From the NCBI GenBank assembly GCA_964016885.1, contig OZ024756.1:30814001-30878000 (forward strand): a DNA stretch of 64,000 bases, written 5' to 3'. This DNA is from Eledone cirrhosa. Taxonomy: Eukaryota. Every line of letters starts with the position of its first letter. The stretch's first letter is position 1. This document shows, in pieces, positions 30,200-34,248 of this stretch. The position numbers and the translations under genes are program-made. The notes beneath the pieces were generated by a model. The model searched no databases. It was not told where the DNA came from and worked only from the letters and a program-made list of their open reading frames with translations.

Positions 30200-33100
30200 T
30201 AAAATATGATATTCAAGGGCATATGAGTATAAATGATGAGAAGAAGAAAGACTCAAACATATATATATATAAATATATATATATATATATATATATACAA
30301 TATATTAATAAATGGAAACTATATTTATATAACCATATTTATTTTATTATATATATTTCAAGGGCAACCAAGGAAAATTATGGTGCGCTTTCATCAGGTA
30401 AAATACAGATTTGTTTTATAAACAAATCTTGACATACCCGGAAAAAAGATAACCTTAACGGTTGGAGCTTAGTGGATAGTGGAGATAATATTTTATTGGG
30501 GGTAATACAAAGTTATGAGTGAGTATGCAAATGAATGTCCGAAAAGTTGAAAAGATAACGGTTTATTTAAATTAAACTGTTGGAAGAAGATGATATGTAA
30601 TGGAGAGAGAAAAAAGAAAAGGAAGGAGAAAGAGAGAAGAGGAAAGAAAGAACGATTATATATTGAAGAAAGTCAGAGTGAATGAAGAAATAAGTTTTAA
30701 TGGAAAAATATACATAGCGTAAATATATCTAAGTGAAGGAAGAAGTGAAAGAAGAAATAAGATTAATGTGGAAGAATAATATTTAGAATGTAGGGTTTAT
30801 TACGTTGGGATTATAATATTTATAATGATAGGTTGACAAATTAGATTCAAATTAAAAATTAAAAATCAAAATTAAAGTTTAAAAATTTGCCTTAATATTA
30901 AAGATTTAATTTAATATTAATATTAAAAATTAAAAATTAAAAATTAAAATTAAAACAGAAGTATTTATATTATATTAAGATGTATTAGTAATAATATATT
31001 GGTTTAGATGTGTATGTTATGGATTATAAATTATTTAAATAAATATATATTATTTTACATTAGAGAAAATCTAGTATAGTTTATTTTATTAAAGTAAGTT
31101 TGGAAAAATTATATTTATTAACAGCTGTAAGTCAAAACTTTAACATCCAAATAATTCTAAATTTATGAAAATTTAAGAGAGTTTGCAAAGGAATAACTAC
31201 TTAATTATATTATAAAAACAGTAAGGAAGTATACAGGAAGTTAGAAGTGATTTTTAAGAACTCAAATGACTCCAAGGATACATAAAAAAACTTTCAAAAA
31301 ATAAATTTTTTTAATTTTAATTTTTTTTTTAATGAGTTTTATGAGTTTATTATAAAGTTAGAAAATTTTATCTTAAGAATATAATTAAAACAAACCATAT
31401 GTTATTTTATAAGAAGTCATAAATTTACCTTAAGAATATAGTTAAAACATAAACCATAGGTTATTCCACATATATATAAAAAACCTATATATACAAACCA
31501 TATGTTATTCCACATATATATAAATAATTGGATACATATATTAAAAATGTTTGAAAATATAAAATATTGGAAGATATGAAAATAATGGTTTTTCTATATC
31601 TTTGAAAGGGACTTTCAAAGAATTTTCTAAAACCTTCAGAAAGTTTTTCAAGGAAAATTTTCCTTAAATGAATTTCAAGTAGTCATATAAAAAAAGGTTA
31701 TAATCTATTGATAAGTGTAATAATATAAAGTATGAGGTAGAGATAATAGAAAGTAAATTAAATATATATGAATCATATATAGATATAATCTGAAGGATGA
31801 GGTTGTAGGTGGTTGGATATAGAAAACATTATGTAAAGGAGATTAACCATATATTACATTTTATATATATATATCTAAAAGTTGAGTTTAAACGATGTTT
31901 ACAAGAACTAAATAAATTATTTCGCAAATTAATAGAGTTCTAACTTTTTAGTATAAAGAATATTTCTTCAACGCAAGGGGAGCAATTTTTCGATAGAGCC
32001 GTGTATGAAGGAGATTTGGAGATATGTTCCCAAGATAAAGAATAGTTAATATCCTTGGATTTTAAGTTCCATAATAAGTTGGATAGAGAAGTTGAAGACT
32101 TTTTAACAATATTCGTAAAGGAACATTTATGGTTATTGAAACGAGATTTGAACTTGTGGAAGTAGAGCCGACATAGTTAAAGGAATTTTCATTGGTTTTG
32201 ACATTACAATTGTATACTATATTTTTAACTAAACAGTTATTATTTAGAGGACAGTTAGATTTATTTCTACAATTATTTTATCTGAATTTCTATTATTGGG
32301 AGCCGTAACATAATATTGGATATTGCTAGAGGTATTAATGCTATTCTGGTTAGGTTTTAAGTTTCTATTATTAATTCTATTAATATTCTGCGCTAAATTC
32401 ATAGTGGTGGAATATGAGAGTTTAATAGTATGTCTATTAAAGATTGAGTAATATCTGTGTGTCTTAGGAAAGCACTTATCTAGAACTTTAAAAAGTAATT
32501 TAGCTATTGGAGTTTTAATACTTAATAAAGAAAGGGGGAGCGAACTATAATATATTTCTAGTTCTATTTCTTCTTTTGATTTTCGAGTTAGTGCAAGGTT
32601 TCCTATTATAATTATATTTATAGTTATGGTTAATTGGCACATCCTTATTATCAATGTATTTAATTTCATTACTATAGCCTGCTCTACTTAACGCTTCGTT
32701 ATAATATTGCGCCTTATCTTCAAATATATTTTTATTCGCTGAAATTCTAGAAATATGTTGCTGCACAGAATTTACAATAGTGTTTTAACGGATCTGGGGT
32801 GATTGGAATTAAAGTTAACATAGTTTAAATTCTCGTTGATTTTATGAAATGGATAATAAAGACCAGTATTAAGGTTTAAAGTTACATCTAAAAGATTAAC
32901 TATTTTATAATTATTCTCTACTTCTATTTTAAGATTAACGCTATTAAAAAATTGTATAATTTTTTTCTTTTCCTATTTATTTCACAATTATTATTATTTT
33001 CAATAAGCAATAGCATATCGTCACGATATAAACCACCGGTCATCTCTGGTATTTTCCTATGTAAAGTATTGTTAATAAACAGCCCCACAAGATCCGTTAT

Positions 33101-34002
33101 TTGCGCCGAGTCCGATGACCCCATAGTGATATCGAAATTGTTATCCCTATCTGCTCTAGTCCAAAGGTGATTGCTAAATTTAATTAATGTTTCAGGTGCA
33201 GTTAAGATAATGTGCATTTCATTGCTAGTTAAATCAGTATATTTAAATGCATATGTAAGGGCTTTATTAAGTAAATTATGAGTGATAGGTGAGTAATAAT
33301 TAGCAATACCAATTGAATGAATTTATTGTTATGTTTATATTTAATGTCCTTAAACCAGTCAATAACTTCATTAGTCCCTTTCCATAATTTTAAATAACAT
33401 ATTTTCTTAAGTTCTATCTAAAGTATTCTTACTAAGTATACCAAGGTCCGATTTAGATGGTGCAATCAGTCTAACTGGTAATTCAATTTCAAATTTCTTT
33501 TATGGTCCTTTAAATTAATTTTTGGTTTCCTAGGTATGAAGGGTTGAGTCCTATTTTCGATGCCTAATTCCTGCATTATATAAGAAGCTTCAGTATTTAG
33601 TCTTTCAAGGTGATCAGTGGTTGCTCCTTTGTAATTTTTCCTTAATTCCTTCAATATAAGATTATTGTAATCATCCTTTTGCATTCCTTAAAGATTGTTG
33701 GTTTTATCTGATTTAACAAGAATTTTTTCCGTTTTTTCAAAGTTTTCTATATTATTTTTGAAACATTTGAGGTAATCCTGGCTTACAGAGTGGTTTTCTT
33801 AAATTTAATGTTTTGTATGATAGAAATAATCTCATGTTCAAATTCCATTAATTGTTTGTTGAAAGGTGGATTCTTTTTGAATTTGAAGATTCTATCAAGA
33901 TTAGAAATATTTTCTTTCGCATCAGAATGTTTGTCGAAATGAAAAGCACGCCATCTAATTTTTAAGCTTGTTGAATCCCAACAAATTAAGTAAAACCTCT
34001 GC
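30200..34002 (-). mobile_element. Penelope-like retroelement (PLE), decayed and 5'-truncated, flanked by (TA)n; probably Hydra-clade-like
   Basis: Colinear minus-strand fragments IRWRAFHF, LKDHK, FDITMGSSDSAQITDLVGL, GGLYRDDML, DKCFPKTHRYYSIFNRHTIKLSYS, then GIY-YIG; ~1.6 kb AT-rich 3' region; 5' end abuts (TA)n at 34003. 3' boundary approximate; clade assignment is from recall. Confidence 0.9.
31875..33990 (-). pseudogene. PLE reverse transcriptase + GIY-YIG endonuclease ORF broken by frameshifts and stops
   Basis: ORF-track pieces 33783-34004, 33466-33684, 32924-33217, 32545-32766, 32244-32669; manual translation of 32277->31875: CRNKSNCPLNNNCLVKNIVYNCNVKTNENSFNYVGSTST/fs/KFKSRFNNHKCSF..STSLS..W..CSPCVEE..*..SSCKHR. 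Confidence 0.92.
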
Positions 34003-34166
34003 ATATATATATATATATATATATATATATATATATATATATATATATATATATATATATATATATATAGAGAGAGAGAGAGAGAGAGAGAGAGAGAGAG
34101 AGAGAGAGAGAGAGAGAAAAGGTTTTTAAATAAATAAATAAAAAATTTGCTGTACTTCCTATATGT

Positions 34167-34248
34167 GCCTTTGCCGCGGTTTCATGCTCCAGAATAAACG
34201 GAAAATCCAAGCGGATTTCCATTGAGAAGGGAGCAATCTTCAGAAGGC
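34167..34248 (-). ncRNA. Hammerhead ribozyme with one core lesion (U16.1->C), just upstream of the PLE
   Basis: Minus strand: gcctt CTGAAGA ttgctcc..long loop..ggagcat GAA ACCGCGG C A aaggc; perfect 5-bp stem I, 6-bp stem II, palindromic CCGCGG. Confidence 0.72.

Follow-up and report, generated by a model that had tools for sequence, protein, structure and literature searches.

Structure of the element

The window analysed here is a 64,000-nucleotide stretch of the Eledone cirrhosa genome (GenBank assembly GCA_964016885.1, contig OZ024756.1, positions 30,814,001 to 30,878,000 of the forward strand), which is AT-rich and microsatellite-dense. A decayed Penelope-like element (PLE) lies on its minus strand between two (TA)n runs, and a short hammerhead-bearing insert lies upstream of it (Table 1). 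We consider it very probable that 30306–33998 is a broken, 5′-truncated PLE copy carrying the marks of the Hydra clade, likely inserted into (TA)n by the nuclease of its own family with reverse transcriptase (RT) priming on both strands, and that the upstream ribozyme is likely an unrelated insertion. A previous sequence-only reading had placed the element at 30200–34248; (TA)n was indeed found at both ends, but the 3′ end of the element is at about 30306 and not at 30200.

The RT motifs, Cys linker, GIY-YIG, CxxC, and SCKH described in that reading were all present in the three-frame translation of the minus strand. The endonuclease motifs were located at 32220–32167 (IVY..YVG, followed by R..H), 31984–31973 (CxxC), and in the segment ending at 31895 (SCKH). 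One open reading frame (ORF) with RT followed by a C-terminal GIY-YIG is the architecture of endonuclease-containing (EN+) PLEs of the C-terminal type. A search with the RT core yielded three proteins among 290 candidates, and tblastn with these proteins gave a colinear cover of the copy from 33962 to 31850. When 1.84 billion representatives were searched with a profile, 26,632 hits were obtained, of which the best 150 were listed; 45 relatives of at least 600 amino acids were used as the comparison set. The profile of these 45 relatives matched the frame in six pieces with E values of 2e-9 to 2e-48, and gave no other match in the window outside this element. When the breaks were read through as X, the translation consisted of 700 residues with nine frame switches and five in-frame stops, and its closest relative by identity was P0006 (37% over 727 columns). 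The copy is 5′-truncated, since its ORF sets in abruptly with the RWR codons (33956), about 35 residues inside the relatives.

Of seven public runs from this organism, four were aligned to 30310–33995 at 80% likeness; they represent at most two samples, and the depth obtained in this way is not a copy number. At least six frameshift positions, among the rows listed, were indels relative to other copies in the reads, and one of them was at RT motif A, where the frame shifts near 33308 and other copies have an extra base behind 33308. At the frameshift in the Cys linker, other copies have an extra base behind 32276. Judged from its sequence, the copy is dead, with an ORF that is not open and a disrupted motif A.

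Table 1. Features of the PLE copy and of the related and neighbouring inserts, in window coordinates
Feature	Position	Strand	Basis or remark
Short decayed copy of the element 3′ end with hammerhead remnant and inverted tail-like piece (28739–28759), between (TA)n runs	28510–28776	-	75% over 150 columns
(TA)n target flank	30259–30305	.	
3′ terminus of the body, continuing into (TA)n; putative internal priming site	30306–30339	-	Sequence; the 28510 copy ends at the same point
Type I hammerhead of the element, with CUGAUGA and GAAA cores, cleavage site UA (H17 at 30348), and a stem III region forming an 8-base palindrome	30340–30405	-	Descriptor scan, constrained folding
Long AT-rich 3′ untranslated region, about 1.45 kb	30406–31861	-	Multi-copy at ORF-like depth
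Single ORF of about 700 codons, decayed; contains the N-terminal region (starting with RWR), RT, thumb, Cys linker, and GIY-YIG	31862–33956	-	tblastn with P0002–P0004, profile search, segment translation
GIY-YIG endonuclease without CCHH; CxxC and CxH around conserved E and N	31874–32220	-	Comparison with Fig. S7 of PMC8557442
Cys linker C-X5-C-X5-C (32271–32233); codon of the first CxC Cys of relatives is the frameshift site	32233–32280	-	
RT region: DKT 33708–33700, MGSSD..DLVGL from 33124, YRDD 33028–33017, LLDVT	32787–33708	-	Three-frame translation, tblastn
Tail of about 31–42 bases, inverted at the 5′ truncation junction; 6-bp hairpin, AC-rich 3′ side	33957–33998	+	Read joints; single copy at three mismatches
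(TA)33 then (AG)24 flank between element and upstream insert	34003–34117	.	(TA)n part is 34003–34069
Separate short insert with type I hammerhead (34248–34167), U16.1 replaced by C	34120–34348	-	Descriptor scan, alignments, shuffles

Assignment to the Hydra clade

The assignment of the element to the Hydra clade is supported by the diagnostic motifs compared one by one, and the same assignment in the sequence-only reading was borne out motif by motif against Craig et al. 2021 (PMC8557442). The marks of the clade given there are RWK, DKT, a divergent RT4(B), absence of CCHH, a CxCX5C linker, C-terminal CxxC and CxH, canonical hammerheads, and (TA)n targets; Fig. S7 of that paper draws the Hydra linker as CxC..C..C and includes Hydra-1_Obim of Octopus bimaculoides. 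In the copy, RWR at 33956–33948 corresponds to RWK, and SDKT at 33708 has DKT in place of DKG, as in Hydra. By-eye comparison with Fig. S7 and the colinear tblastn alignment indicated a divergent RT4(B), a GLYRDD-type motif, and fingers without an insertion. The endonuclease lacks CCHH, with a single Cys between IVY and YVG where the canonical rows of Fig. S7 have two, and the conserved E and N are enclosed by CxxC and CxH (CSPC..EE..N..SCKH). The second, third, and fourth Cys of the linker are present, the first falls on the frameshift, and related reads gave K-C-N-C at the linker start (86, 53, and 12 reads from two to three starts in one run). Insertion into (TA)n is likewise a feature of the clade.

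Among the 45 relatives, YRDD was found in 42, Y[IV]DD in none, DKT in 32, and [AS]DKG in one; RW[KRH] was found in 20, some of the relatives being without the N-terminus, and a pattern search detected the four-Cys linker in 28. In an unrooted tree of 46 rows, built by a quick method with relatives unlabelled by clade, the copy fell into a seven-row clade (Shimodaira–Hasegawa-like approximate likelihood ratio test, SH-aLRT, 100) together with P0035 and P0043, both from the octopod Argonauta hians, which provides the closest named relatives of the protein.

Neptune and Nematis, other C-terminal EN+ clades, also have a Cys linker (CX2-5CxxC) and a preference for microsatellites. It is nevertheless extremely improbable that the element belongs to either of them, since these clades have CCHH and DKG, whereas the element has no CCHH, DKT instead of DKG, and YRDD instead of Y[IV]DD, together with a Hydra-type RT4, a WxK..FD segment, and a terminal CxH. 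Naiad/Chlamys was rejected because an N-terminal endonuclease is expected there and that of the element is C-terminal.

Similar to the Hydra clade including Hydra-1_Obim (PMC8557442), the element has a single ORF with RT and C-terminal GIY-YIG, RW[KR], DKT, a divergent RT4(B), no CCHH, a CxC-X5-C linker with a further Cys, then CxxC and CxH, a type I hammerhead near the 3′ end, and (TA)n insertion. By eye, it differs from Hydra-1_Obim in reading MGSSDSAQIT where the latter reads MGAYDSADIC, and in its hammerhead, which indicates a different family. Unlike the complete Hydra entries listed in that work, which are 2.1–2.7 kb long, this dead copy is at least 3.65 kb long and has its hammerhead 1477 bases after the ORF. 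The element is thus a new family of a known clade, octopus Hydra elements having been published already.

Among the relatives, the Hydra-type RT P0043 of A. hians has the annotation 'GATA zinc finger domain-containing protein 14-like', and P0175 is filed in a Gammaproteobacteria metagenome bin, probably as eukaryotic contamination.

Hammerhead and 3′ region of the element

A descriptor scan of both strands gave six matches scoring at least 8, including one at 34243 with one core change and one at 30397 with none. The former is the upstream hammerhead, which the sequence-only reading had reported correctly; the latter, belonging to the element itself (30405–30340), was missing from that reading. 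Both hammerheads rest on the descriptor scan together with constrained folding. The element's own hammerhead lies about 35–100 bases from the 3′ (TA)n, and a hammerhead near the 3′ end without core mismatches is a Hydra feature; cleavage is predicted. The first stem I pair is mismatched in the window copy, and the pairing letter was present at 30398 in more than 99% of the read depth, so that an 8-bp stem I would be completed in other copies. Loose read ends at 30360–30364 represented alternative stem II hairpins on the same frame. A palindromic helix III has been tied to dimeric cleavage (PMC4209133). An Rfam search of the whole window gave 430 matches; of these, 150 were listed, almost all of them to microRNA models at microsatellites.

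The 3′ region between the ORF and this hammerhead had a GC content of 0.11–0.30, and the only (TA)n run inside the element is a short (TA)6 at 31862–31873. A metagenome scan yielded 63 related loci, 35 of which had a detectable ORF end; in 19 of these 35, a script found a downstream hammerhead at 82–468 bases (median, 169). Three loci with a hammerhead 141–185 bases after an earlier ORF end (L002, L031, and L041) were left out of the 19. The 3′ region appears to be three times as long as the longest seen in the relatives examined. Its read depth was 648–10,188, compared with 717–16,411 for the ORF.

Inverted tail at the 5′ truncation

The segment 33957–33998 was considered as the N-terminus of the ORF and dropped after the read joints showed an inverted tail there; the joints listed numbered 15 out of 45, and the spacer rows 12 out of 45. 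Read depth was present in all 30 bins of 30310–33995, and the bin containing 33957–33995 reached 25,855 in read set X1, compared with 717 in the adjoining bin. Opposite-strand joints from 30310 to 33957, 33958, and 33960 were found in 128, 34, and 34 reads from nine, four, and four starts, respectively (X5), and one contig in X3 had an opposite-strand joint from 30310 to the tail; therefore, the 3′ end continues into the tail in other copies. Same-strand joints from 30327, 30405, 30470, and 30478 to 33967–33970 were found among the joints listed, and the tail therefore sits inverted at other truncation points. Many molecules ended at 33987. The published PLE tails of 30–40 bases, often present at one end only, fit this tail.

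The tail also bears on whether the ORF and the 3′ region belong together. They could represent two neighbouring insertions, with a Hydra ORF that stops at the (TA)6 near 31862 and, next to it, a hammerhead-bearing repeat of 1.55 kb of unrelated origin, because the (TA)6 stands right at the ORF end and a spanning contig was not found; reads also appeared to be cut at 31849–31880, and the hammerhead is farther from the ORF than in any of the 19 relatives. However, the same tail sequence is found at the 5′ junction of the ORF here and, in other copies, directly behind the hammerhead end, which ties the ORF and the 3′ region to one RNA. In addition, one contig in each of X1–X3 (one sample) joined 31785 to 31934, with a short side of only 21 bases, and the depth of the 3′ region resembled that of the ORF. 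On this evidence, two insertions appear quite unlikely.

The upstream hammerhead

The upstream hammerhead (34167–34248) was, as had been described, on the same strand as the element and close to it, at 169 bases (previously given as about 165), although its core has C for the conserved U16.1. It had been proposed to lie in an upstream pseudo-long terminal repeat (pseudo-LTR) of the element. The global match of the two hammerhead regions of the window was 68/142, which was equalled by 90 of 500 shuffles and is at the shuffle level. As a control, five related loci with a hammerhead on both sides of the ORF matched at 101/101, 95/101, 98/101, 100/101, and 83/83 (94–100%). In local alignment of 34120–34348 with the 3′ end of the element, 36 of 200 shuffles scored as well.

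A pseudo-LTR later separated from the element by microsatellite growth would account for the shared strand and the proximity, and the base of stem II (TTGCTCC..GGAGCAT), identical to that of the Hydra-type loci L007 and L016, gives the insert a Hydra-style look. Such an origin is, however, highly unlikely, given that the similarity to the element 3′ end does not exceed that of shuffles whereas true pseudo-LTRs match at 94–100%, that the ORF is 5′-truncated and already capped by its own inverted tail, and that 115 bases of (TA)/(AG) repeat lie in between. The results fit a separate insertion, which had been named as the alternative, and the pairing proposed for the upstream ribozyme is corrected accordingly. 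Because its stem II base equals that of L007 and L016, 34120–34348 may be the end of another Hydra-like family. A blastn search of nine window pieces (the upstream insert, the element's own 3′ end, the tail, and six insert families) against the 63 loci gave nothing under an E value of 0.04.

Short copies and the proposed mobilising partner

The short copy at 28510–28776 aligned with the element 3′ end at a score of 120, which none of 200 shuffles reached. Its layout is (TA)n, a tail-like piece with a TTGTTG/CAACAA hairpin as in the element, a decayed hammerhead, the end point of the element, and (TA)n. The last bin at the 3′ end of the element had about 200 times the median ORF depth (X1), much of it from reads fitting only the last 50 bases. 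These results point to the existence of many short relatives of the element 3′ end, and it is likely that the family produced its own short hammerhead-bearing copies. Similar to non-LTR retrozymes and solitary PLE pseudo-LTRs (preprint 10.64898/2026.07.22.740005; PMC4209133), these are short type I hammerhead pieces related to PLE ends, with a palindromic helix III. Unlike retrozymes, they are monomers or inverted pairs in microsatellites and not tandem arrays of at least two hammerhead units.

Among 21 regions tested against the element 3′ end, only 28510–28776 matched clearly, and the rest, save 22200–22500, were at or near the shuffle level. The region 22200–22500 scored 41, with 0 of 200 shuffles scoring as well; this is possibly a short TA-rich match. 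The segment 30130–30258, which resembles the 3′ half of the hammerhead, was rejected because 32 of 200 shuffles scored as well.

The element had been suggested as the possible mobilising partner of the hammerhead inserts. The window copy cannot have this role because it is dead, and the 3′ sequence of its family was found in 28510–28776 but not detectably in 34120–34348 or the other hammerhead inserts tested. The family might still act in trans on these inserts without shared sequence: they have the (TA)n preference and inverted layouts in common, the hammerhead at 1073 has a TATATA stem III like that of the element, and the above preprint links animal retrozymes to PLE pseudo-LTRs. That link rests on shared sequence, however, and only one of the 21 regions matched clearly; it is simpler to regard every insert as the 3′ end of a PLE family of its own. 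We thus regard a partnership in trans as unlikely.

Proposed insertion mechanism

The 3′ end of the body lies at one flank and the 3′ end of the tail at the other, and the tail begins where the body ends in the RNA; we therefore infer twin priming. The RNA would be cleaved by its own hammerhead, probably as a dimer by analogy with PMC4209133, and GIY-YIG would nick both strands of (TA)n. One nick would prime just before the tail and copy the body until a stop, here at 33956, while the other would prime at the far end of the tail and copy the tail only, after which the two cDNAs would be joined. Early stops would give many short hammerhead-bearing copies such as 28510–28776. This scheme would correspond to twin priming at two adjacent start sites as reported in vitro for Poseidon (PMC11167929), whose protein cuts and extends both strands of AT-rich DNA; its two start sites, next to each other at an AC-rich stem-loop, lie on either side of the tail. 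For the tail, PMC8557442 proposes endonuclease-mediated resolution instead. As a tentative generalisation, which we regard as possible though by no means the favoured expectation, this octopod family of the Hydra clade, whose 3′ region is three times as long as that of any relative examined, would insert routinely by fixed-site twin priming, with the tail alone inverted at every 5′ truncation, seeding very abundant tail-capped hammerhead mini-elements.

Several observations weigh against the reading of the locus as a Hydra-clade copy inserted in this way, in addition to the (TA)6 at the ORF end. None of eight window pieces gave a significant Pfam match (best E value, 0.014), the relatives themselves matching RVT_1 and GIY-YIG only below the Pfam cut-offs, and a PDB sequence search gave no significant match. 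The quick tree had no outgroup and contained only unlabelled relatives, without Penelope, Neptune, Nematis, or Naiad references. Focused Rfam scans detected neither hammerhead (30405–30340 and 34248–34167), and the unconstrained fold of the element's own hammerhead was not that of a ribozyme (-8.8 vs -6.5 kcal/mol). Counting the long 3′ region as part of the element, the length of at least 3.65 kb despite 5′ truncation exceeds the 'generally <3 kb' described for the Hydra clade, a descriptive and not a diagnostic feature. No contig and no read of the public runs spanned the whole element, and all four aligned runs come from the small number of samples given above. The joint at 30310 falls on the first base of the aligned stretch, which leaves its precise position uncertain. 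The tail match at 28739 is a short one (18/21 columns, score 30, the shuffle control applying to the copy as a whole).

Comparison with known systems

Poseidon PAc of Anolis carolinensis (Frangieh et al. 2024, PMC11167929) is similar to the element in its 30–40-base tail at an AC-rich stem-loop and its AT-rich target. It belongs to another clade, has CCHH, and has a hammerhead that overlaps the ORF start, and its accessible account is without a tail-only inverted copy at 5′ truncation points. In L1 twin priming (Ostertag and Kazazian 2001, via PMC2246262), both break ends likewise prime one RNA and an inversion results. Unlike in L1, the element seems to have a fixed internal start, some 40 bases past the site of hammerhead cleavage, and a terminal segment of only 30–40 bases.

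The element itself is unsurprising, as published work already covers Hydra elements, their octopus members, and PLE tails and inverted ends. What is new is a family with an atypically long 3′ region, together with a clean geometry in which the inverted piece equals the tail and occurs at many different truncation points. Open-access text yielded no work whose listing concerned PLE mechanism by twin priming and nothing on this octopus Hydra family with its hammerhead, and the accessible main text of PMC13282606 does not mention Hydra or hammerhead. The formation of tandem and inverted PLE ends is named as an open question in PMC8557442. The geometry described here links the two in vitro start sites of Poseidon to the inverted ends of another clade, and the family would make the origin of PLE ends testable by junction counts in one genome. 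If the twin-priming reading is true, it would allow the origin of PLE tails and inverted ends to be read from the genome by counting.

Other repeats in the window

A general repeat search of the window was swamped by microsatellites. Several further hammerhead-bearing inserts were observed. At 14081–14516, two short inserts stand in inverted orientation to each other, and both contain an intact minimal core of a type I hammerhead (14230, minus strand; 14314, plus strand); a copy of the same sequence, 94–95% identical, is located at 27122–27363. The short insert at 975–1190 (minus strand), between (TA)n runs, contains the intact type I hammerhead at 1073 and is otherwise not clearly like the element 3′ end (10 of 200 shuffles). 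The segments 25781–25990 and 46193–46325 form an inverted repeat arranged tail to tail, in which the hammerhead-like core at 25832 lacks a canonical cleavage triplet, and 51161–51460 has a hammerhead-like core at 51428 (minus strand) beside a repeat family also present at 25995, 46329, and 57018.

Short inverted (palindromic) repeat families, in which the scan detected no CTGANGA core, were present at 36511–36692, 42592–42797, 50034–50168, 26111–26211, and 56363–56924. Two 402-base copies (21372–21773 and 34961–35362) were 99% identical. The plus strand at 35130–35303 encodes a C2H2-like peptide, which we take to be typical of the 3′ end of a long interspersed nuclear element. Tandem and dispersed repeats of about 190–200 bases were found at 9856–10698, with copies at 16220, 19879, 39262, 48896, 49356, and 63919. 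Minisatellite arrays were located at 48074–48985 and 53843–54761, the first having a 36-base period with copies about 98% alike.

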